From sequence record NC_070872.1: 64,000 nucleotides of DNA, one strand, 5' to 3'. Below are positions 3,045-63,800 of this stretch, piece after piece; the first letter of the stretch is position 1, and each line of letters starts with the position of its first letter. The notes under the pieces were generated by a model that was not told the origin of the DNA, did not search any database, and saw only the letters and a program-made list of their open reading frames with translations. The position numbers were made by a program, and so were the translations under genes. Origin of the DNA: Escherichia phage U1G.

Positions 3045-3238
3045 TATAATGCGTAAATCACTTATTTTAGGTAATAAATCTGACGTACAGAAGATGAAGG
3101 AACGTCTGGCTACTAAGCAACAGACATCTGAACCAGTACGTAAGATTGTTACCTTCAATCATCCTGATGCATACAAATGAACTGGCCTATCTCAATAACC
3201 ATGCTTGCACTGTTAACCTACGGTGCATTAGTAGAATT

Positions 3239-11823: not shown

Positions 11824-12998
11824 ATGAACCAGATACCTCAGCACACACTTAGTGATGAACAACTCATGCGTGAGTATGACCGTATTCAGGCGCAGGCATT
11901 TCTCGGACGTAGTGCAGCATTTTTTGGTTCATTACTGTGTAGTCTTAAGTTCTCATGGAAACGTGAAGACTGCCCCACTGCATGTACTGATGGAATAGAA
12001 CTCCATTTCAACCCAGACTTCTTTATCTGGATGTGTCCAGATGCAAGAGAAACAGTGCTAATGCACGAACTCTGGCATGTGGCATATCTGCATGGCATCC
12101 GTCGTGGAAGCCGTGACCCAGAGGTCTGGAACCAGGCATGTGACCACTTCATTAATCTTCAGTTAGAAGAAGATGGATATAAGTTCACTGGTATCGACAA
12201 AGGCATTTGCAAAGACCCTCAATACAAAGGGTGGGTCGAAGAAGACATCTACGATGACCTGATGAAGAACCCTCAGAAAAGGCAGAAGCCGTCAGGGGTG
12301 CTGGAGCAGGTCTTGCTGGTGACATGAAATCTCCCACTTCGGGGCAGTCCCAGGGTGCTGTCGTCAACAACGTAGTACGAGCAATGCAGAGCCAGAAAAT
12401 GGCTGGTGGACAGATGCCCGGTAAGGGTGCTGGTCGTATGGAAGAGGTTATTACCCAATTCCTTAAACCAGTGGTTCCATGGCAGGAAGTCCTCATGAAC
12501 TTCTTTACCGACATTGACGATACTCATTATACGTGGGCCAGACCTAACCGTCGTTTTACTGACATCTATCTACCTTCCATGGAAGATGATGAAGGACGCT
12601 TACGACACTTAGCCTACTTTGAAGATGTATCTGGTTCTATTAGTAGTGCAGATTCTCTGCGATTTAACTCAGAGGTTGCCTACGTTAAGAGCCAGTTCAA
12701 TCCTAAGAAGATGTCCCTAATTACCTTCGACGATATTATTCAAGAAGAGATAGACATCACTGAAGAAGATACTTTTGAAGAGATTAAGATTACTGGTCGT
12801 GGTGGTACAAACCTGGAACCAGTACGTGATTGGATTATTAAGAATAAGCCAACCGCTGCAATCATATTCTCTGATATGTATGTTCGTCCTATGGAAGAAT
12901 TACCATTTGATATTCCTATCATCTGGTGTGTTCTGAATAATCCCAATGCTACCGTACCTTTTGGGGAGGTAGTTCATATCCCTAAAGGAATGAAATAA
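11824..12998 (+). CDS. putative metallopeptidase + vWA-domain protein (DUF2201-like MoxR partner); two ORFs in this assembly
   Basis: HELWH (HExxH) in N-part; MIDAS-like DVSGSIS in C-part; the second frame is open from 12258 with a Gly-rich linker; +1 nt at A4 (12277-12280) or G4 (12295-12298) fuses the ORFs. Confidence 0.5.
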
Positions 12999-14156: not shown

Positions 14157-14387
14157 ATGTTTCAAAATAGACGAGGTAAATCAGTCCTACATGATATGGA
14201 CTTTAGTAAGCTGGAAGAAAGGCTAATTGCACACGCAGGCATTCATGACTCAGTAGATGTTACTGTTTCTAAGGTTGAATTAAAGAATCTGGAGAATATG
14301 CTCTCCAAGATGAAACAAACATTAATTCATGGATGGTCAGGTAGGCAGGTATTTGTTGATACTTACATTCCCCGGAACCTCATCTGA
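14157..14387 (+). CDS. hypothetical protein (start after the terminator; longest ORF begins 14055)
   Basis: Terminator sits inside the 5' part of the longest ORF; internal ATG follows it. Confidence 0.4.
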   Translation: MFQNRRGKSVLHDMDFSKLEERLIAHAGIHDSVDVTVSKVELKNLENMLSKMKQTLIHGWSGRQVFVDTYIPRNLI

Positions 14388-15954: not shown

Positions 15955-15981
15955 AGACCTCCTCCGGGAGGTCTTTTTTGG
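15955..15981 (+). terminator. rho-independent terminator
   Basis: agacctcc-TCCG-ggaggtct followed by TTTTTT. Confidence 0.6.
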
Positions 15982-21864: not shown

Positions 21865-22233
21865 GAATATTAGTACCCAGATTGGTTGTCATCTGGAAGA
21901 AGTAGTAGAGATGCTAGACGAGTTATACGCTAACTCAGAAGATGCTTACGATATTCTTCACAATGCCATTGCAGCATTAACCGAATTGTCTGATTTAATG
22001 AAAAAGATGACAAAGAGGTATATGCACCGAACAGCCATCGTTTAGCTATCCTTGATAGTCTTGCTGACCAGATTGTTACAGCAACCGGCGTCGGTACTTT
22101 CCTTGGGATGAATGTCCCTGGAGCATTGAATGAAGTCAATCGCTCTAACTATTCTAAATTTGAAGATGGAGAACCTGTCTTCAATGAGAACAAGAAAGTC
22201 ATGAAGGGTAAAGACTACACTCCCCGGATTTAA
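21788..22233 (+). CDS. putative MazG-like NTP pyrophosphohydrolase; two frames in this assembly
   Basis: EEVVEMLDEL motif; C-terminal part EVNRSNYSKFEDG in the adjacent frame; +1 nt in A5 (22001-22005) fuses them. Confidence 0.35.
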
Positions 22234-24627: not shown

Positions 24628-26442
24628 ATGCGTTACATCACCTCTCAGGATACTGGTAAGTATCCTATTGCTATCCTCGGTCATCAAATCCGAAGGGAGG
24701 AGATGATTAAAACCTATCTGCTGCCTTATGACCTAAGTATGGAAGACTTCATCTTTATTGAACTTCATTCTGCCCCCGGCAAGAAAACTCCTGCAAGAGA
24801 GATTAAGGAGTTCATACAGCAGGAACTGCAACAAGTACTGGATGATGCAGAGACTCAATACATTATCTGTACCGATTCTGACTACTTCAAAATACTGACT
24901 AAAGAAGCTAAAGCAGAGGCTAACCTCGGCTATGTTTGTGACTCAGTATGGGGTAAGCAGAAGGTTATCTATGCACCTAGCTACAGACAGGTCTTTTATG
25001 ACCCTCCTGTAGTGAAATCCAAGATTGCTCAGGGTATGGATGCATTACTTAACCACATACGTGGGCAGTATGCTGAACCAGGTCAAGGAATCATTGAGTT
25101 TGAAGCCTATCCGGATACTCCCGAGAAGATTAAAGCCTGGCTAGACCAGTTGCTTGAGATGAATAAGCCATTGGCTATAGACATCGAAGCATTCGGTTTA
25201 AAGCACTATAACGCCGGTATAGGGACAATTACATTCTGTTGGAGTAAAACACAAGGCATAGCCTTTAACGTGGACTACGAGCCGATTCCTGGAGCTACTG
25301 AAGCACCATACGGGCGTATCAACCGTAATGATATTGTTCGAAACCTTCTGCGTGAGTTCTTCATTAAGTACACCCAACGGCAGATGTATCACAACATTAG
25401 CTATGATGTGTACATACTTATCTATCAGTTATTCATGGATAATCTGATTGATACAGAGGGACTACTACATGGCATGGACATCATGCTGCGTAATTGGGAC
25501 TGTACTAAGTTAATCACCTATCTGGCTACTAACAGTTGTGCAGGCAATCATCTTAGTCTAAAAGAGCAGGCTCAGGAGTATGCTGGTAACTATGCTCAGG
25601 ATGATATCAAAGACATACGTCTTATTCCTAATGAGCAACTGTTACGCTACAACCTCATTGATGGTTTGTGTACTTGGTACACATACGAGAAGCACTGGGA
25701 TACTCTCATTGCCGATGACCAACTTGATGTTTACAACAGCATCTTTAAACCAGCCTGTGAAGACATTATTCAGATGCAGTTAACCGGTATGCCCATGAAT
25801 ATGGAAACCGTTAACCAAGTAGCTGAAGAAATGGAAACTGACAGGAACCAGGCTCTGAAAACTATTCGTGAGTCTAACCTCATGAAGAACTTTACCCTGA
25901 TGCTTCGTCAGGAATGGGTAGACGATAAGAATGCTAAGCTTAAGAAGAAGCAGGTAACACTAGCTGATTGTGACATTGAGTTTAATCCTAACTCTGGCCC
26001 ACAACTACAGAAGCTGTTATTTGACTATATCGGCTTACCGGTTCTTGGTCTTACTAAGAGCAAGCAACCTGCTACTGACGGTGACACTATTAAAGCACTG
26101 CGTACACATACGCAGAGTGAAGATGTTAAGGAACTGCTCAATGCACTTATCGACTATAAGCTCGTGGATAAGATTATCACTAGCTTTATACCAGCTTTCA
26201 GGAATGCCCAACCGGGACCAGATGGCTGGCACTACCTGTTCGGTAACCTCAATCTGGGAGGCACAGTCTCCGGTAGGTTATCGGCTTCAGAGCCAAATCT
26301 ACAAACAATTCCATCCGGCTCTAAATATGCCAAGAAGATTAAGAAATGCTTCGAAGCTCCACCTAGTTGTTACTTGCCAAACAGGACCAAGCTGGATACA
26401 TTAATCCAGTCCCTGAAAAATACAATTAGTGGTGCCAAATGA
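24628..26442 (+). CDS. family A DNA polymerase, N-terminal fragment (3'-5' exonuclease plus part of polymerase domain)
   Basis: Exo I AIDIEAFGL; GTVSGRLSASEPNLQTIP and KKCFEAPP just before the break. Confidence 0.75.
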   Translation: MRYITSQDTGKYPIAILGHQIRREEMIKTYLLPYDLSMEDFIFIELHSAPGKKTPAREIKEFIQQELQQVLDDAETQYIICTDSDYFKILTKEAKAEANLGYVCDSVWGKQKVIYAPSYRQVFYDPPVVKSKIAQGMDALLNHIRGQYAEPGQGIIEFEAYPDTPEKIKAWLDQLLEMNKPLAIDIEAFGLKHYNAGIGTITFCWSKTQGIAFNVDYEPIPGATEAPYGRINRNDIVRNLLREFFIKYTQRQMYHNISYDVYILIYQLFMDNLIDTEGLLHGMDIMLRNWDCTKLITYLATNSCAGNHLSLKEQAQEYAGNYAQDDIKDIRLIPNEQLLRYNLIDGLCTWYTYEKHWDTLIADDQLDVYNSIFKPACEDIIQMQLTGMPMNMETVNQVAEEMETDRNQALKTIRESNLMKNFTLMLRQEWVDDKNAKLKKKQVTLADCDIEFNPNSGPQLQKLLFDYIGLPVLGLTKSKQPATDGDTIKALRTHTQSEDVKELLNALIDYKLVDKIITSFIPAFRNAQPGPDGWHYLFGNLNLGGTVSGRLSASEPNLQTIPSGSKYAKKIKKCFEAPPSCYLPNRTKLDTLIQSLKNTISGAK

Positions 26443-27095
26443 TAGGAAAGAAATTTAATAGATTGACTGTAGTCAGGTTCAGTCACAAAGACAAATACTA
26501 TGCAAAGCATTGGGAATGCCTTTGTGACTGTGGGAATACTACTATAGTCAACAATCAAAAATTAAAGAGTGGTCATACAAGAAGTTGTGGATGTTTACAC
26601 AAAGAATGCCTACGTAACTATAAAGATGGTCGTTCTAAGGAACTACTATATAAGGTTTACTACGGCATCCTTGACCGCTGCCATAATGAAAAGTGTTCCA
26701 CTTATTACAAATATGGGGCTAAGGGCATAAGTGTTTGCGATGAGTGGAAAAATTCATACGAAACTTTCCGAGATTGGGCATTATCTTCTGGTTATGCAGC
26801 AGGTCTTAGTATCGACAGGATTGATGCCTATAAAGGATATTCTCCAGACAACTGTAGATGGGCAAATAGAAGTACCCAACAAACTAACAAAAGGGTTTGG
26901 AGTACAACTCCTTACGTTAGCTACAGTAAGTCAAAAAATAAATGGGTAGGTAGAATTACCCATTTGGGTAAGAGAATAGAAATCCGGGTAGATAGAGATC
27001 TAGATACTGTTATGAATGCAGTTATTGCTTATGTATTAGCTAATAACTTGGTTGAACAGGAGAAGGTACTTCGTAATGCAGGACTTATTAAATAA
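26439..27095 (+). CDS. free-standing homing endonuclease-like ORF (Zn-ribbon plus AP2-like domain) inserted in the DNA polymerase gene
   Basis: FNRLTVV...WECLCDCGNTTIV...GHTRSCGC pattern, C-terminal NKWVGRITHLGKRIEIRV; ATGA overlap with the polymerase N-fragment stop; different frame from both polymerase parts. Confidence 0.6.
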   Translation: MIGKKFNRLTVVRFSHKDKYYAKHWECLCDCGNTTIVNNQKLKSGHTRSCGCLHKECLRNYKDGRSKELLYKVYYGILDRCHNEKCSTYYKYGAKGISVCDEWKNSYETFRDWALSSGYAAGLSIDRIDAYKGYSPDNCRWANRSTQQTNKRVWSTTPYVSYSKSKNKWVGRITHLGKRIEIRVDRDLDTVMNAVIAYVLANNLVEQEKVLRNAGLIK

Positions 27096-28047
27096 ATTAG
27101 TTAGCATAAAGGATAGAGTAACCCTGGATGACTATGACGAGTTAATACAATTAGCTAGTAAATATGGCATGCAGGAACAAGTATCTGAATGCTTTGACTA
27201 TGAGGGTGGATGGTTGTTTTGTGGGCTAGACTTTGCGTCCTTAGAGGATCGCATATCAGCCCTAACAACCAAAGACCCTAATAAATTGCGTGTGTATACT
27301 GACGGGTTTGACGGTCATTCACTCAGAGCTAAATTTTATTTCGGTGAACAAATGCCGGATATTGATGACTCTGTAGAAAGCATCAACTCTATACAGAAAA
27401 AATATAAAGCCTTACGTAGCGAATCGAAAGCACCTACTTTCTTACTGACCTACGGCGGAACTTATATGGGCTTAATGAAAAACTGTGGCTTCTCGGAAGA
27501 GAAGGCTAAATTAATTGAGTCCAGATACCACGAAATGTATACGGTTAGTGATGCCTGGGTTCAGGCTAAGCTAGACGAAGCTGCTAAGACTGGTTATGTA
27601 ACTGCTGCATTTGGTTTGAGAGTGCGTACTCCTTTACTGGCTCAGGTTTTACGTGGGACATGTAAGACCCCATATGAAGCAGAAGCTGAAGGCAGGACTG
27701 CTGGTAATGCATTAGGTCAAAGCTGGTGTCTACTGAATAATCGTGCTGGCTCAGAGTTTATGCGTAAAGTCAGAACCAGTGAGTTCAGATTAGATATACG
27801 TCCTTGTATTCACATTCATGATGCCCAATACTTCATGATTCGTGACAACATGGATACCTTGCAGTACACGAACAAGCACTTGGTTGAAGCCGTTAACTGG
27901 CAAGACCATCCTGATATTGCTCATCCAGAAGTTGGTTTGGGTGGGGAACTATCCTTGTTTTACCCAACGTGGGCTAACGAGATTGAAATTCCAAATCACG
28001 CTACCCCAGATGAAGTTCATCAAATAATTCAAAAGGCATTCGCATGA
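27076..28047 (+). CDS. family A DNA polymerase, C-terminal fragment (palm/fingers)
   Basis: Motif A LDFASLEDRISAL, motif B KAPTFLLTYGGTYMG, motif C IHIHDAQYF; AGGAGAAGG upstream of ATG 27076 (longest ORF starts TTG 27052). Confidence 0.7.
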   Translation: MQDLLNKLVSIKDRVTLDDYDELIQLASKYGMQEQVSECFDYEGGWLFCGLDFASLEDRISALTTKDPNKLRVYTDGFDGHSLRAKFYFGEQMPDIDDSVESINSIQKKYKALRSESKAPTFLLTYGGTYMGLMKNCGFSEEKAKLIESRYHEMYTVSDAWVQAKLDEAAKTGYVTAAFGLRVRTPLLAQVLRGTCKTPYEAEAEGRTAGNALGQSWCLLNNRAGSEFMRKVRTSEFRLDIRPCIHIHDAQYFMIRDNMDTLQYTNKHLVEAVNWQDHPDIAHPEVGLGGELSLFYPTWANEIEIPNHATPDEVHQIIQKAFA

Positions 28048-43300: not shown

Positions 43301-46300
43301 TCAGATTACCTTCCAGAGCTTTAGTCAGCTTTTCAGACATAGCTTCACGGGACATGTTATGTACCTTGATACCTAATGCCTGAGCCAGACCTAACTGGAA
43401 GTCAGAGAATGTTTGGCTGTTTTCATTACTCAAGTCAATAGTAGAGAAGGTTGGCAGAATTGCTTCACGAACCAGTTTACTGGATTGTGGATTGTTCTTA
43501 CCTAACATCTGCATACGACCTACACGGGTCATGTTGTAACCATAGTGAATAGGCGTATCCAGACCATTCTCCTGTTCCTGTAATTGATTGATTACACCAA
43601 ACAAAGAGTCATATGCCATAGACACTGACAGGTTCTTACCTTCCAGTGATTTAGCAGTATTCACGTTCAGCAGTTCAGGATTAAGAGTACCAGCACCCAT
43701 CAGTTCCAGAATGTTGTCACGACCTAATGCTTCATAGAAGTTAACCATCGGCATGTGTACACGGAACTCGGTAGCCTGTTCTGCTTTAAGAGCAGCTTTC
43801 TGCTCTGGGGTATTCTTAACAGCAGGGTTACGTAACTGAGTTTGAGCCACGGAAGGAATATCATCACCAAAGTACATTTTCTCTTCTGGTTCTACGAGAA
43901 CAGCTTCCTCGATAGCAGTAGGGAACTTGTTAATGGCATCGTTATCGTCCAGCTTCTCAATAGTATATAGACCAATAGTCTTATTGGAGTCTGGGTCAAT
44001 CTCAGACACATCAAGCATAGATTCTTTAACTTCACCCATCTCAATGAGAGAAGACAGAATCTCTGTAGCCATTGCCATTGGAATACCTTTGGTATAACCC
44101 AGTGGTGCATTTGGATTACGGTCCAAACCCCAGTAAGATTCAATCTTTTGAGCCAGTGAGTTAGTAGCTTCAACCAGAGTCTGAGCATTCTCGAATTCAG
44201 CCAGAATACCTTCTGGTAACAGAGATGCTTCTACACCAGTAATAGCAGCTACGTCTTTCATATCTTTAACAGCAGCATTCTGTGTAGCAGTCAGTCGCCA
44301 TTGCAGACCAGCAAGTACAGCAGTTTCTAACAACTGGTCATTAAACTTAAAGGTATCCCCATCTTTCTCTACGATGTTAAGTAACTTACCACCTACCCAA
44401 CGGTTAGCTTCAGTACCTTCTGCAAAACGTTTACCTACGTTCTTATTAGCAAGGAACTTAGCCAGACGGTCAGACAAAGTAGTCTTCAGAGTTTCGCCAA
44501 AATCAAATAAGTCCTGATAACGCTTAATCACATCACTTGTGAGAGCGTTATTTTCTTTTTGAGTGAATGCTTCAAAGCGAGCAGCAGAAGACAGTGCTTT
44601 CTTAACATCAGTCAAAGGGGATTCAGAACCAATGGTTCGAGACTTAGATTCTTCCGGCAGAGTAAATGCCTTAAGGAACTGGTTCGGTGTCTTGTCATTG
44701 TTATAGACAGGGAACACTGTTTCCATTTGAGATAGGGGTTTACCACCAACGGTATAGTCTGCTTTCAGTTGAGCCAGAGATACCTCTATCTTCTCAACGT
44801 TATTGGTATTACGCCCAGACGTATCTACACCTATTTGAATCAGTGCATTGTTTGCTTCTACGAATGATTGAACAGTATTGAATTGTTCAGGAGTCAGCTT
44901 CTGATTATCAAACAGTTGCAATGATACAAACGGTTGTTCACTGCCTTTATAGAAGGTAGAGCGAATAGCACCAGTATCTAATGACATATCACGATAACCA
45001 TCATGACCAAATACGTCCGACAAGCTAATGTGGTCACCATTAGAGCCAACAACAGTACCGTCAGCAAAGAGCCAAGGACTCTCTTTACGATCACCATACT
45101 TATTAAGAGTATCTTGAGAAATAGTATTCTCTTTTACATAAGCATCTCTTTCAGATTCAGTAGACTGTACATCAGTATCCTGTTTTTCAGACTGGTTCTC
45201 AGGCTCTTTTACAGACTGTGGTTTAGACTCTTTAATAGTAGATTCTGTTTTAACAGCTTCACTAACAGAGGGTTTAGTCTGTACAGTAGAGGTAACTGGT
45301 TCCTGTTTCATAACAGGAGTTTCATCAACCTGATTCACTGGTTCATTGGTCTGTTGAGACTGAGTGGCATCAAGACCACCTTGACGGAACTCTTTAACTA
45401 CCTGGGCAGCAGGCTTGTCCAGACGTGAATCCAATGGGGTAACTTTCACATGAGAAACATTAAGCTCCGGGTAAGCCGTAGCAAGTGCATTAGCAATATC
45501 AGCTACGGTCTTGGCCTCCAGTCCTACTTGCTGGGCAAACTTAACAGACTTGGTATCATACGGATTGACACCGAGGCCAGTACGACTACGTACCCATTCA
45601 CGGGAAGGAGTAAGAGCCTGATAATGGACAGACTTATTCTTATCCGCATTCCCAGAAATCAGATGCTCATTCAACGCTCCGACCTTATTCTGCATGTGCT
45701 GGGCGAACTTCATAAAGTCGTCGAGATAAGCGGAAGCCAAATCGAAGTTACCAGAGTTGTACGCAGAACGAATGCGTTTAGCATGTTGCAACGCAGAGTA
45801 CTGACCTTCATTAGAACGAGACTCGTCGGTTTTAATTTGTTTACTAACAATATCTTGAGGACGTAAGCCTAATTCTTCTGCTTTAGCGTCGAATTCACGT
45901 GCACCCTGTAACAAGGCAGCAGCCGATTGCAGGGCAGCACGTTGTCTATTCCCCAGTGTAATCTTACCTTCACTTGCATGTTTCAGAACCATGTTCACTG
46001 AATCTGCATCCAGTACTTCTGGAGACATATCAGCAGCCATAGCAATGTTGTTTGCTTGGGTTTGGTTAGCTTCTTCAGTAGCTTTCAGTTTACCCGCTTC
46101 AGCCTGCTCCTGAATCATGGAATGAATGGCACGGAATGCACGAAGTACCTTCGGTGTATTCTGAACGTTAGCCATCAGGCCAGAGAACTGGTCAACAATA
46201 TTAGCAGCATGAGAACCTTGTTCCAGGTTAGCCAGAGCACCTGGGTCACGGTTAATGAAGCTATCCATAGACATGATATTGTCATACATCTGGATTGCAG

Positions 46301-48174: not shown

Positions 48175-50138
48175 TTACCGATTTTGTCTTGGTTGCATAT
48201 ACTCAGGCAAACCTTGTGCCTGACGTAGGTAACGTGCAGCACGTTCTTCATCTTCCTTGGCTCGTGCTCTGTCCACACTAGCCTGTGACCGAAAACCTCT
48301 TGGAGCCAGGTTATCTGGGTCTGCTTGTACTTGGGCTTGTGCAGCTTGTAGCATTGCAGCAGCTTTAGTAACAGCCTCCTGACGAGCAGGTAACAATGCA
48401 GTAAGACCTGTTTGTCCAGTGTTAATCTTGTTCTGGGTATTTGTCAGTGCAGCTACAGCAGCATCATAAGCAGTCTGTGCTGCCTGAATATTCTGCATAG
48501 CTTGAGCACGTCCGAGATTACGTACACTGCCTTCCAGTGGTTCGCCTCGTTGTACACCCTCAATTAACTGATCTACCAGACGGTCATTAAGACGCATACC
48601 ATTACCAGCTTCATTAGTAATGAATGGGTTAACTGCATCAATAGCACGGCTAATGTACCCTTCTGGTACACCGGTCTGTGCACGTTGCATAACAGCAGCA
48701 GCCATAGCTGGTGACATATTTCCACGTTGAGAAATATCAGTTAGTCGGTTAAGTACCCAGTTACGGTCAGCACCCTTAAAGTCACCATCCAGTAGACGAT
48801 TAGCAATCTCACCTACTGGAGTATTATCGGTAACAGTACCCAGGAAATCGGTATTAAGACTACCAGTGTTATCCTGCATAGAACGAGTACCAATCATACC
48901 TTGAGCCAAGGTAGATACTGCCCGATTTCCCTGATTATTCTGAATCAGAGCGAATGGGTCAGCACCTACTTCAGCTTGAGCAATAACAGGTTTAATCTGT
49001 TCCCAAGTCATATCCTTATAAGCACCTGGGGTAGAATTAGGTAAAGCAGCCCAGGTATCTTTAAGGTTACCATTCTTACGAGCCTCAAAAATAGCCTTAC
49101 CAATCTTCTCCTGGTTTTCAGGGGAAAGAGGCTGATTCTTCCAATCTGAGCCAAGAACTTTGGGAGCAAAGTCTTGCAGAGTAGCCTGGTTAATCTGGAA
49201 TGCACCAACAGGGGAAGCACCTTGATTTGTCTTCATGACATCCTGGTGTTTAATTACATCACCTATACTCATTTGAGTAATAGGGGTAGATGTACCAGCA
49301 AACTGATAAGTAACATCATAAGGAGAACCCTGACGAGTACCAGCAGTACCAGGAGCAGATGTAGCACCAACATTATTGCCGTAAACACCAGGGTATGCAC
49401 GAGCAAGCATTTCCTGTAAACGTGCCTGAGCAACTGGAGACAGATTCTTACTATATGCTTCTGCTAACAAACGAGCATCATTAGGGTTCTCAGCACCACG
49501 GGTAATTTGAGACATCACACCCATAGCTGCCTGACTATCAGCATCATTACGTTGAGCCACACCCAAATCAAAACGGTTCTGTGCTTGGTTAATAGCCTGA
49601 CCACCCTGCCCTTGTAGACGACTTAACATATCCAGTTGTTGGTCAGCAGGTAGTGCAGATAACGCTTCTCGCGTCTGACCCAATGCAGCATTAATACGAT
49701 TCTGGTCACCAGACTGATAAGCCTCGGACAATAAACGAATAGCTGGGGATGCATTATCTAATGCAGAGTCAGTATTCTGTAAGCGACCAAAACGATAAGC
49801 ATTATAGTCATTGGTTCCCTGCTGACCTTGTTGAGTCAGAAGAGTACCTGCTCGTTCATCCAGATTCTGGAGAGTACGCTGACTTACCAATGAAGGGTCA
49901 ACCCCTGAAACAATGCACCAGATGCCAAAGCATTACGATACTCAGTAGGGTCTTGATACTGCATAGCATTCATCATGACGGCATTGCCAGCCTCCTGCTT
50001 GGCAGCGTTCTGGAAATTACCCAGTGCATCACTTAAGCCGGAGGTGGCATTACCAATCATGTTGCCAAATGTGCGAATGCTGTCACCAACTCCGGAGAAG
50101 TTAGGTGCATAAACATTACGCCATGTAATTTGAGCCAT
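48175..50138 (-). CDS. internal virion protein (N4 gp51/52-like); two ORFs in this assembly
   Basis: 571-aa ORF has only a TTG start with no SD and 7-nt overlap with the 84-aa ORF; +1 nt in C4 (49902-49905) fuses them (~654 aa). Confidence 0.45.
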
Positions 50139-59972: not shown

Positions 59973-60479
59973 TTATTCCTGTTCAAAAAGTTTACGGTCA
60001 GCCTGAATCTGTTTACCCAACTCAATTAGTTGGCTGTCACGGAGTCTAACAGTTGCCCGGAGTTCTTCAACCAAACGTCTGCCTTCTTCAAGACTGCTGT
60101 CGAGTTTGGCTGCATGGCTTGCAAGACTTCTGCACTCAAGGGTTCCGGCTTCGGCTTGACGTTTATATACCGATGCTCGTCTTTCAGACTGTTGCATCCG
60201 GCTGTCATAATCACTGCTAACGCGAGCAAGCTCGCTTGCGTAATTACTCTCAGCCGTCTGCAACCGAGAAGTGAGTAACCCGACTTCATAACTATGGTTT
60301 CTTTGGAGAGCATCGTATTTGTCCTGTAATTTTTGTATTGCCTTTTGGTCTTCAACCTTTTGGTTATCCCACTTCTTTTGAACAGTAGACTGCCCATTGG
60401 AATTACCCCAAAAGTAAATGGTGGCCCCAAGGACCACCACCAGAAGATAAGGCCAACCTTTAGAGATTAGCATCTTCAT
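59973..60479 (-). CDS. i-spanin (Rz-like)
   Basis: N-terminal [18 protein letters not shown] then charged coiled-coil-like domain; overlaps the muramidase 3' end. Confidence 0.5.
60026..60289 (-). CDS. putative o-spanin (Rz1-like), embedded in the i-spanin gene
   Basis: Alternate-frame ORF with hydrophobic signal-like segment ending TAGC followed by Pro-rich tail; lipobox atypical. Confidence 0.3.
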   Translation of the reverse strand: MKSGYSLLGCRRLRVITQASLLALAVIMTAGCNSLKDEHRYINVKPKPEPLSAEVLQAMQPNSTAVLKKADVWLKNSGQLLDSVTAN

Positions 60480-61094
60480 TACATGCCTCCAGTGGCACAT
60501 TGCCTATTCGGTTAGCTACCCAACCATACGTAAAGTCTGGCATGTTTAATGAGGTATAGTGGTTTAGTTGTTTAGCATCAAGCAGCTTAATCATTACCTG
60601 ACATGCTGCAACTTTGCCTCGTTTTTTCTGTAATGCTTTATAAGCATTAACAGTACTTGCACCGACTTTACCATCAACCTGTATTTTAGGGTAGTCTTTG
60701 CCATCACGGGACATTTCATTAAGGGATAACTGCAACCACTTAGCCGGACGGGTTACACCAGTATTAACACCAGCATCTACCAGCTTATGCGTTACAGCAG
60801 GAGATATATCAGCGAAGGCTACGAAGTTAGGCTTAAGTACGTAGTCATCAATGTATATCTCAGCAGCCATCTCCTTAGATAAACCTTTCATAGAACCACC
60901 CCAACCATATTCAGTAGCCAGAACCTCCTTATGAGACTTAGCTACCGATTGGGTAATACCATGATTAGTTTCCCCACCTGGGTCACGAGGATTGTTTACA
61001 TAACCCCTTCCATATAGAACACTGCCCCCAGGATAGCAGCGACAACCCCTCCCACTGCACCACCTTTTGCAGCAAGTTTCTGTTTAGCTTTCAT
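60460..61094 (-). CDS. GH108-type N-acetylmuramidase endolysin (N4 gp61-like) with signal-anchor-like N-terminus; frameshifted in this assembly
   Basis: YVNNPRDPGGETNHGITQ GH108 motif; SD-preceded ATG 61094 encodes MKAKQKLAAKGGAVGGVVAAILGAVFYMEG in another frame; +1 nt in C4 (61004-61007) fuses them. Confidence 0.6.
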
Positions 61095-61476
61095 GAGAAT
61101 TTTCCTTTGGACGGAACCGTATTAATCTGCCTATGATGTTTAAGGCAAACAGTGCGATTGCAATATTGGAACCATGGGGAATATCTTCCAGGATGTGACG
61201 AGGTAATCCTGTCACCATTGGTTGGATGATATCTACAGCAGAAAATAGAATTAAACCAAACGTACTAATTTGAACGGATGCCCACTTCCAGGACTTCTTC
61301 CAGTTAGGTACTAACTCAAACTTTCTTTTAGCCTGCGAACCATGCGAATATCTCCCGTCTTGCAGCAGCCAATACACCAATAATTGCACCTGCTCCAGCC
61401 CATACCCACTTACCGAAAATTCCAGCACCAACAACTTTATGCTTAATGGTGATGAACTCTTCAATAGTAGGCTCAT
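61084..61476 (-). CDS. putative lysis-associated membrane protein (holin candidate)
   Basis: Two predicted TM helices in the C-terminal 80 aa; N-terminal 50 codons overlap the upstream ORF. Confidence 0.3.
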   Translation of the reverse strand: MSLLLKSSSPLSIKLLVLEFSVSGYGLEQVQLLVYWLLQDGRYSHGSQAKRKFELVPNWKKSWKWASVQISTFGLILFSAVDIIQPMVTGLPRHILEDIPHGSNIAIALFALNIIGRLIRFRPKENSHES

Positions 61477-61657
61477 TTTTAGCTAAACTATCCTCCACAT
61501 TTTTCAGTCTATTACCTATGTCATTGATTGAATCCCGCAGTTCTCCTAGAGTTTCCTCCAGTTTCTCACGGTCCTGTCTGTCTCTTGTCTGGTTCTCAAA
61601 CAGAGTCTTCAATCGTTCCTCCAGTCTGACTAGAAGCAGTTCACCCGATTCATTCAT
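61328..61657 (-). CDS. putative membrane protein with N-terminal coiled coil and C-terminal TM (holin/antiholin candidate)
   Basis: C-terminal VVGAGIFGKWVWAGAGAIIGVLAA. Confidence 0.3.
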   Translation of the reverse strand: MNESGELLLVRLEERLKTLFENQTRDRQDREKLEETLGELRDSINDIGNRLKNVEDSLAKNEPTIEEFITIKHKVVGAGIFGKWVWAGAGAIIGVLAAARREIFAWFAG

Positions 61658-61915: not shown

Positions 61916-63800
61916 TTACTGCTTCAAGCCATATACAATAATATCTGCACCTAATGTAGTCCACGCTTCGTCACCACGAGAACTTGCGCAGTTAACCGTA
62001 AACCCAGAAGGGGTTTGGTTAGTAACGCTAAATACAGGGGCAATACTCTGCAATGCACCAATACCCCCATTAAAGGTTACGGCTACACGATAATCCAGTA
62101 AGTTAATAGGTAGTGTTACTTCAGTACTACCAGCGGAACCAGTAGAGCGGGTGATAGATATACCCTTACGATAGATGAATTGCCCATTACGCAAACCAGA
62201 TAAAGTGGTGTTATCGGAGAGTGAGTCCACAATATCCCCAGCAACAATACCAATACCAGTTAAATCAGTATTAGTAATGATTCGTACACCACCTTCCTTG
62301 GTTCTTTCTAGTACCCTGGTTCCAGAAGCCAGACTGTATTTACCAGTTAATGTACTACGACAGGTAACGTTAGTAAGGTCAAAATAGTTATTAGAGCTGC
62401 TGGCATCATTAATAAGGTAAGAGAAGTTAACACATCGCACATTACTCATAGTAATTTGAGAATCTGAACCCTTACTTGAAACATCTACAAGATAGGGGTA
62501 TTGGCTGTTTGGTATGGAGGGTAATTACCCGCATGATAATTAGAAATACCTAATGCAACCCTACCATCTATGTAGATAGCAGAACCCGTTCCTGTATTTT
62601 CAGAACCACAATTATGCATACTAATGCTTCGGGTATCTGTAGTAGCGTTATCACCGGAACCACCGCCAAATACATAACTCCAGCGGGTAGTATGGTCGCA
62701 TGCACAATCAATAATTGAACTATAGCCACTAGCTAAGTAGTAACCACGATTAGCATAATCAACATAGCATTCTTTTATGTAGGTACTAGTACCGTCTTGG
62801 ATATAGAACCCGGTATCCGTACAGTTACGAGCAATACACCGGGATATACGTTGAATCCATGAACCTTTATCAAATATACCAAACTTATAACCTTCAAAGA
62901 GGCAATCTGATACGTAACTGTTCTCCGTTATACTAAAATAGATACCGTAGTCAGCATTGACTGTAGTTGTAAAGCGAATACCTGAAATACGAGCATACTT
63001 ACTCTGATTAGTATCTGTTAGTACAACAATAGCAGCATTTACGTTAACATCCACCCCGTAAGCATCTGGCTCAGTTATACCTGTCTTAGCTAAGGTAGTT
63101 AATTCAATAATTGCATTACCACCTTGTCCTTCAATTTCATAGTTATAAAAGCCTAAATTGCGATACAACAAGGGTTTAGTAATAATGTACTTCTTGGATG
63201 GAATCACCAACTTAGTTCGATTCAGTTGACAGTAATCCATTGCTGCTTGAATGGCTTCAGTATCATCAGTAACACCATCCCCCATAGCACCAAATACTTG
63301 CGGGGTAACATAGTGTATATACTTATTAAGTAGTTCCTCTTTCAGGTATGCGTCGGATATAGCAACCCAATTAGCATCCCCAACAGGGGATGATCCAGGA
63401 GCTACAGTAACGGGTAGTGCACCCTGGTAGGTGTATCCAGTACCATTGTAAACGAGTATGTCATTCTTAGTATTTACTATGGAACCGGTGGAGAACGTGC
63501 CAGGTAGGGTAGTATACTCCCCCTGCTTTTCCCAAGTTCCCCCAAATCAACAGTACCTGCTGAATGAACCAGGATTGCTTGTTCATTCAGGCTTACAGCA
63601 GTGGTTCCTACCGGGAGTACGGGCAAAGAGTAAGCACGCTGAGTAGTCTTATCATAAATGACCTTGTATTCCCCTAAGTCTACACCTACAGCAAAGTAAA
63701 CAACCTCATTCTGCTTAACTCCAAAGTGACGGGCTACTGCTTGTTTGTTGGTTAAGATTCCAGTGGAACCTTTACCACCTTGTGAGAACATTTCGTTCAT
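61916..63800 (-). CDS. tailspike/tail fibre with pectate-lyase-like beta-helix; three ORFs in this assembly
   Basis: AAGAGG SD before ATG 63800; GDGVTDDTEAIQAA beta-helix signature; +1 nt in C5 (63519-63543) and in G4 (62495-62498) gives one ~628-aa ORF. Confidence 0.55.

Follow-up and report, generated by a model that had tools for sequence, protein, structure and literature searches.

A one-base deficit in the GH108 endolysin gene of a Gamaleyavirus genome, a probable homopolymer error of the sequence record

The endolysin gene and the surrounding lysis cassette

The window, i.e. the whole stretch of 64,000 nt that was analysed, is a Gamaleyavirus genome, with approximately 94–97% identity to the nearest records but an exact match to none of them. 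Its lysis cassette has the gene order known from phage N4: a gp63-like gene, a gp62-like gene, the endolysin gene, a gp60-like gene with an embedded gp60a-like gene and then the portal gene (Table 1).

When analysing the endolysin gene two reading frames were found. The ATG at 61094–61092 on the minus strand comes after an AAGGA Shine-Dalgarno-like sequence and opens an ORF of 32 codons, MKAKQKLAAKGGAVGGVVAAILGAVFYMEGVM, that ends with a TAA at 60998–60996, the coding strand reading AAAGGAAAATTCTC ATG AAA GCT ... TTC TAT ATG GAA GGG GTT ATG TAA. The GH108 frame, which is -1 relative to this ORF, reads GYVNNPRDPGGETNHGITQ... from 61005 and is open to a stop at 60460, with its first ATG at 60891 giving an ORF of 143 aa. 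The sequence-only reading had described an SD-preceded ATG followed by a stop after 32 codons as well as a GH108-motif frame devoid of an upstream start codon, and both descriptions hold to the base. It had also proposed that one extra nucleotide in the C4 run at 61004–61007 (G4 on the minus strand) would join the two frames. Adding one G to this run indeed fuses them into a protein of 211 aa (...FYMEGGYVNN...), as in all relatives, with the junction peptide ...AVFYMEGGYVNNPR..., and the repaired junction is exactly the sequence of PGN829.1, the closest relative, which has G5. In the sequence as given, the deletion separates the E-G from the G-Y of the EGGY motif.

Table 1. Features of the lysis cassette and genes of the window that are restored by adding bases to shortened runs (coordinates are those of the window)
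Feature	Coordinates	Strand	Details
Predicted endolysin gene, N4 gp61 ortholog, GH108 N-acetylmuramidase with N-terminal SAR domain	60460..61094	-	635 nt as given; 636 nt / 211 aa in relatives
G4 homopolymer (C4 on +), one base short, within the E-G-G-Y codons	61004..61007	-	PGN829.1: GAA GGG GGT TAT
Endolysin 5' fragment	60996..61094	-	30 authentic codons (Lys-rich start and SAR segment), then 2 out-of-frame codons and TAA
Putative SAR (signal-arrest-release) segment, residues 11–28	61011..61064	-	GGAVGGVVAAILGAVFYM
Endolysin 3' fragment, -1 frame	60460..61005	-	rest of GH108 domain, PG_binding_3 domain and stop; first ATG 60891
Holin gene, N4 gp62 ortholog, frameshifted	61084..61343	-	repaired product: PHROG 1356 holin, E 4.8e-29
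gp63 ortholog (pinholin in N4), 109 aa, intact	61328..61657	-	side-by-side comparison with N4 gp63; PHROG 5211
i-spanin, N4 gp60 ortholog, 168 aa, intact	59973..60479	-	start overlaps endolysin stop; relatives' annotation and comparison with N4 gp60
Embedded o-spanin, gp60a-like, +1 frame of i-spanin	60026..60289	-	lipobox-like ...MTAG/C; mature part 56 residues
VWA-like gene, G4 run (references G5)	12295..12298	+	167 + 224 aa as given; 391 aa repaired
gp28-like gene			110 aa as given; 132 aa repaired
HNH gene			145 aa as given; 162 aa repaired
Sak4-like gene, G5 run one base short of references	32817..32821	+	133 + 139 aa as given; 250 aa repaired
SSB, A5 run (references A6)	33300..33304	+	N-terminus truncated, 213 aa as given; 265 aa repaired
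gp51-like virion protein, C4 run (references C5)	49902..49905	-	truncated, 571 aa as given; 654 aa repaired
Endolysin, G4 run	61004..61007	-	143 aa as given; 211 aa repaired
Tailspike-like gene, break 1 of 2, G4 run (PGN829.1 G5)	62495..62498	-	628 aa repaired
Tailspike-like gene, break 2 of 2, C5 run (PGN829.1 C6)	63519..63523	-	107 + 266 + 177 aa as given

The holin gene is interrupted in a similar manner. Its run at 61326–61329 is A4 on the minus strand (T4 on the plus strand) compared with A5 in all aligned relatives, and as given the gene encodes MVRRLKESLS followed by a stop, where the relatives read ATG GTT CGC AGG CTA AAA AGA AAG. The repaired holin consists of 86 aa and matches the MVRRLKRK.ELVPNWK... 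of the relatives. The ORF of 130 aa (61084–61476) that appears in the program-made list of ORFs is a chimera produced by this frameshift. The gp60a of N4 lies within gp60 and as a mature lipoprotein has 56 residues (10.1101/2025.11.12.688109), and the corresponding embedded o-spanin is left unannotated in several of the relatives.

Identity of the repaired protein and its N-terminal anchor

The repaired protein of 211 aa matches Pfam GH108 (PF05838) at residues 24–113 with 71.9 bits against a cut-off of 21.2 (E 6.5e-20), in agreement with the muramidase family proposed earlier, and PG_binding_3 (PF09374), the usual partner domain, at residues 117–196 (32 bits, cut-off 24.6); it also matches the endolysin group PHROG 315. 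The EGGY sequence, the conserved catalytic element of the GH108 family (PMC13284979), is present in the repaired endolysin and is followed by DPGGxTxxGIT (...YMEGGYVNNPRDPGGETNHGITQ). Residues 26–211 are 99.5% identical to an annotated N-acetylmuramidase, and this identity together with the Pfam matches places the fusion of the two frames far beyond chance. The ORF of 143 aa starting at 60891, on the other hand, reaches only 19.7 bits against the GH108 cut-off of 21.2 and covers profile positions 44–85 only. As the sole active muramidase this ORF was rejected, since it lacks the half with EGGY...DPGGxTxxGIT and scores below the cut-off and so could not act as a muramidase alone. As given, the window encodes no translatable product with a complete GH108 catalytic domain.

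A megablast search with the region retrieved 55 phage records, all Gamaleyavirus (Schitoviridae, G7C/N4-like) with E. coli or Shigella as hosts, at 94–99.6% identity, and the relatives carry an annotated 636-nt "N-acetylmuramidase/endolysin" between the holin and an Rz-like spanin. The Gamaleyavirus endolysins (PGN829.1 AXY82587, EC1-UPM YP_009598341, Bp4, G7C and others) share 95–99.5% identity with the repaired protein over residues 26–211, and their genes are 94–99.6% identical on the DNA level with the same CDS boundaries and the same overlaps with the neighbouring holin and spanin genes. Their EGGY codons are read in frame throughout, with either G5 or GGAGG, whereas the window has G4. 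On the basis of these comparisons the locus is identified as the endolysin gene of a Gamaleyavirus of E. coli, an ortholog of N4 gp61 and a member of GH108; the endolysin is thereby an already known one, with no departure from the annotated Gamaleyavirus endolysins.

The N-terminus of the repaired endolysin, MKAKQKLAAK-GGAVGGVVAAILGAVFYM-EGGY, was studied by sequence inspection and Kyte-Doolittle windows together with a comparison to N4 gp61 (YP_950539), which by BLASTP is 69% identical to the repaired endolysin over 183 aa (E 8e-103). N4 gp61 has 208 aa and belongs to an Enquatrovirus, the repaired protein has 211 aa and belongs to a Gamaleyavirus, and the N4 gene is uninterrupted whereas the copy in the window is broken by the 1-nt deficit as given. 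When the N-termini are aligned, N4 gp61 (M)AISKKKVGGVGGVIAAIIAAVFAVEGGYVN and the window endolysin MKAKQKLAAKGGAVGGVVAAILGAVFYMEGGYVN both show a basic, Lys-rich start and a Gly/Ala-rich, weakly hydrophobic stretch of ~18 residues abutting EGGY. In the best window of 17 aa, the segment has a mean hydrophobicity of 2.0 with 47% Gly+Ala, compared with 2.4 and 53% in N4 gp61. The architecture after the anchor is common to both proteins as well, with the DPGGETNHG motif following EGGY and then the PG_binding_3 domain. N4 gp61 has been shown by experiment to be a SAR endolysin (bioRxiv 10.1101/2025.11.12.688109); it complements canonical holin and pinholin backgrounds and causes a slow, holin-independent rounding, and Gly-to-Glu changes in its SAR domain lead to rapid lysis (10.1101/2025.11.12.688109). 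It is also the founding GH108 N-acetylmuramidase, with its activity demonstrated biochemically in work cited in 10.1101/2025.11.12.688109. The SAR-type signal anchor suggested earlier for the N-terminus is thus supported, since the endolysin is orthologous to the experimentally tested N4 gp61 and agrees with its segment in position and composition, and the 69% identity likewise suggests that the repaired protein would have muramidase activity.

TtsA-type GH108 muramidases of Salmonella type 10 secretion systems (PDB 6v3z, 6v40) fall into the same fold family, GH108 with PG_binding_3 (E 7e-27), and have the EGGY catalytic motif in common with the window endolysin. They are however bacterial secretion-associated enzymes and not phage SAR endolysins, and the similarity to them is far below that to N4 gp61 or to the Gamaleyavirus endolysins.

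In N4 lysis, the pinholin is gp63 and a holin is gp62, and the spanins are gp60/gp60a (10.1101/2025.11.12.688109). By homology to this system, the Lys-flanked Gly/Ala-rich SAR segment would tether the 211-aa endolysin in the inner membrane after export by Sec and the enzyme would be kept inactive there. Depolarisation of the membrane by the gp63-type pinholin or the gp62-type holin would then release the endolysin, which could degrade the murein before the gp60/gp60a spanins complete lysis.

Shortened homopolymers along the window

An alignment of the EGGY codons shows GAAGG-GGT in the window (GAAGGGGT) against GAAGGGGGT in PGN829.1 (G5, GAA GGG GGT TAT) and GAAGGAGGT/A in the other relatives (GAA GGA GGT/A TAT). 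Among the megablast matches listed, the aligned stretch is 1 nt longer than the window query in 30 of 30 close relatives, and when tblastn was performed with the repaired protein, residues 26–211 were aligned in one frame across the E-G-G-Y junction in 151 out of 151 phage records containing the gene. Three environmental contigs, one from IMG/VR and two from metagenomes, carry in-frame alleles with G6, G6 and G5. An exact-pattern scan of IMG/VR gave no second copy of the G4 allele, a gap-tolerant pattern for the junction, run on IMG/VR, metagenomes and GTDB genomes, gave no alleles other than in-frame ones, and the G4 allele was not found when complete E. coli genomes and plasmids were searched by megablast. 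Scans of the window with Rfam and for tRNAs gave nothing relevant.

The window was then compared with four complete relatives, of which PGN829.1, EC1-UPM and VTCCBPA_322 (VTCC322) are sound references (n = 3) and the fourth, Bp4 (NC_024142.2), was left out as a reference for its many deletions of its own. Against the three references, all isolated frameshifting indels but one are deletions of 1–2 nt in the window, mostly at homopolymers; the sole exception is a 1-nt insertion relative to EC1-UPM at 3045, which lies on the border of an alignment block. About 15 of the deletions are isolated 1-nt losses at homopolymers, mostly in G/C runs, and the shortened runs comprise those given for the broken genes in Table 1, the holin run and the runs at 14370–14373, 31–36, 15974–15979, 22222–22225, 35370–35375 and 35567–35571, the last five lying at the ends of genes or in what seems to be non-coding DNA. 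A further deletion, at ~30215–30216, changes GG to G and does not concern a long homopolymer; like the one at 14370–14373, it is among the deletions that break or truncate genes.

The extent of shortening depends on the length of the run: one of the 82 G/C 4-mers of PGN829.1 is shortened in the window, six of the 20 5-mers and both of the two 6-mers, and 7-mers of the other references appear as 6-mers. As 14 of the 20 G/C 5-mers are not shortened, the error would be stochastic and not absolute. A few A/T runs of at least 5 are also shortened, and a run-by-run comparison with the references revealed no lengthened homopolymers in the window. The pattern therefore comprises many sites, a single direction and a dependence on run length. 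The possibility that the references and not the window carry the errors was rejected, the three independent references agreeing with each other and having intact ORFs.

Adding one base back per site gives at least 9 genes the full length seen in the references (Table 1), and none of the broken genes requires a nonsense substitution or a larger lesion as explanation. The 10.7-kb vRNAP gene and the portal and capsid genes are intact in the window.

A similar situation was seen in the record of Bp4, from the same genus, in which conserved genes are likewise broken at short G/C runs into neighbouring ORFs, rIIA into 3 parts and the DNA polymerase, primase, gp53 and gp51 genes as well. Compared with the window, single bases are missing from Bp4 at many GGG(G) runs. 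The sites of the breaks differ from those in the window, and the endolysin of Bp4 is intact. This suggests that the deposited Bp4 genome contains the same type of homopolymer artefact.

Some further differences between the window and its relatives were observed. An insert of ~838 bp on the plus strand (26370–27207) divides the family-A DNA polymerase gene into 24628–26442 and ~27208–28047 and contains an ORF (26439–27095, plus strand) for an HNH-endonuclease-like protein of 218 aa that matches PHROG 374 (E 3e-63) and has no match in Pfam. PGN829.1 has the insert as well, whereas EC1-UPM and VTCCBPA_322 lack it. No group I intron model was found at 26370–27207 with Rfam, and the insert may represent either an intron or a genuinely split gene. 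PGN829.1 in turn has an HNH homing-endonuclease gene (44840–45431) between the gp52-like and gp51-like structural genes that is absent at ~50131–50133 of the window, which looks like a presence/absence polymorphism of a mobile endonuclease. The region ~35100–37300 contains ~2 kb with no ORF of at least 100 aa except 36824–37216 and aligns patchily to the relatives with many small indels; ARAGORN found no tRNA anywhere in the window, Bp4 being annotated with two tRNAs in the corresponding region.

Sequencing error, mutation or recoding

The frameshift in the endolysin gene is very probably a homopolymer undercall in the sequence record, i.e. an error of sequencing or assembly that would be absent from the phage DNA. 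We infer this as by far the best explanation because about 15 homopolymer deletions, all in one direction, break at least 9 conserved genes. With the deletion the EGGY motif is removed from any translatable product, and a strictly lytic phage whose genes for endolysin, holin, SSB and structural proteins were all dead could not be propagated.

A real 1-nt deletion, making the endolysin a pseudogene by loss of function in the isolate or contig, is improbable in comparison. Homopolymers are hot spots also for true polymerase slippage, the deletion is present in the sequence as given and nothing within the window alone proves an error; the sequence could for instance come from a defective genome within a mixed population, from a minority variant that the assembler had chosen or from a copy in decay. 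This reading would however call for 10 or more inactivating frameshifts, independent of each other, in conserved genes of a strictly lytic phage, among them those for SSB, holin, endolysin, virion proteins and tailspike, and this without nonsense substitutions or larger lesions, one base being enough to restore every broken gene, and with vRNAP (10.7 kb), portal and capsid genes kept intact. The downstream endolysin frame is still 99.5% identical to PGN829.1, and where mutation would give gains as well as losses, the one-directional and length-dependent bias is the signature of base-calling errors.

Even less credence can be given to a real frameshift that is bypassed by -1 ribosomal frameshifting or transcriptional slippage at the G run, yielding little full-length SAR endolysin and acting as a device for lysis timing. 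The shift needed is indeed -1 and at a G run, with a stop two codons on, and endolysin dosage affects the timing of lysis in N4 (10.1101/2025.11.12.688109). Against this, the frameshift occurs in 0 of 151 phage records and 0 of 3 environmental contigs, most relatives have GGAGG and no homopolymer at the site, and the zero frame AUG GAA GGG GUU AUG UAA contains no slippery heptamer of the type X XXY YYZ; the same explanation would moreover be required for ~10 other genes. A tract of G4 is far below the lengths known to support productive transcriptional slippage. Programmed frameshifting or slippage was thus rejected, the frameshift not being conserved and the slippery heptamer being absent. 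It is accordingly most doubtful that the G4 is real and that the SAR endolysin is made only by low-frequency -1 frameshifting or slippage within the EGGY codons, as a recoding throttle on lysis, or that short alleles represent a heterogeneous, phase-variable population.

A real frameshift would mean that the genome is not viable or else that a lysis gene is recoded in a way without precedent, but the evidence points strongly in the opposite direction, towards an undercall in the record. For annotation, the window as given yields a truncated and catalytically dead "muramidase", a broken holin and split SSB, Sak4-like, virion protein and tailspike genes, which should be flagged as probable homopolymer errors instead of being taken for pseudogenes or new small ORFs; the practical gain is a set of ~15 sites in the window where the gene calls are probably broken by error. 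The underlying biology is already established, namely that of an N4-type SAR endolysin with the catalytic Glu directly after the membrane anchor, together with pinholin, holin and spanins.
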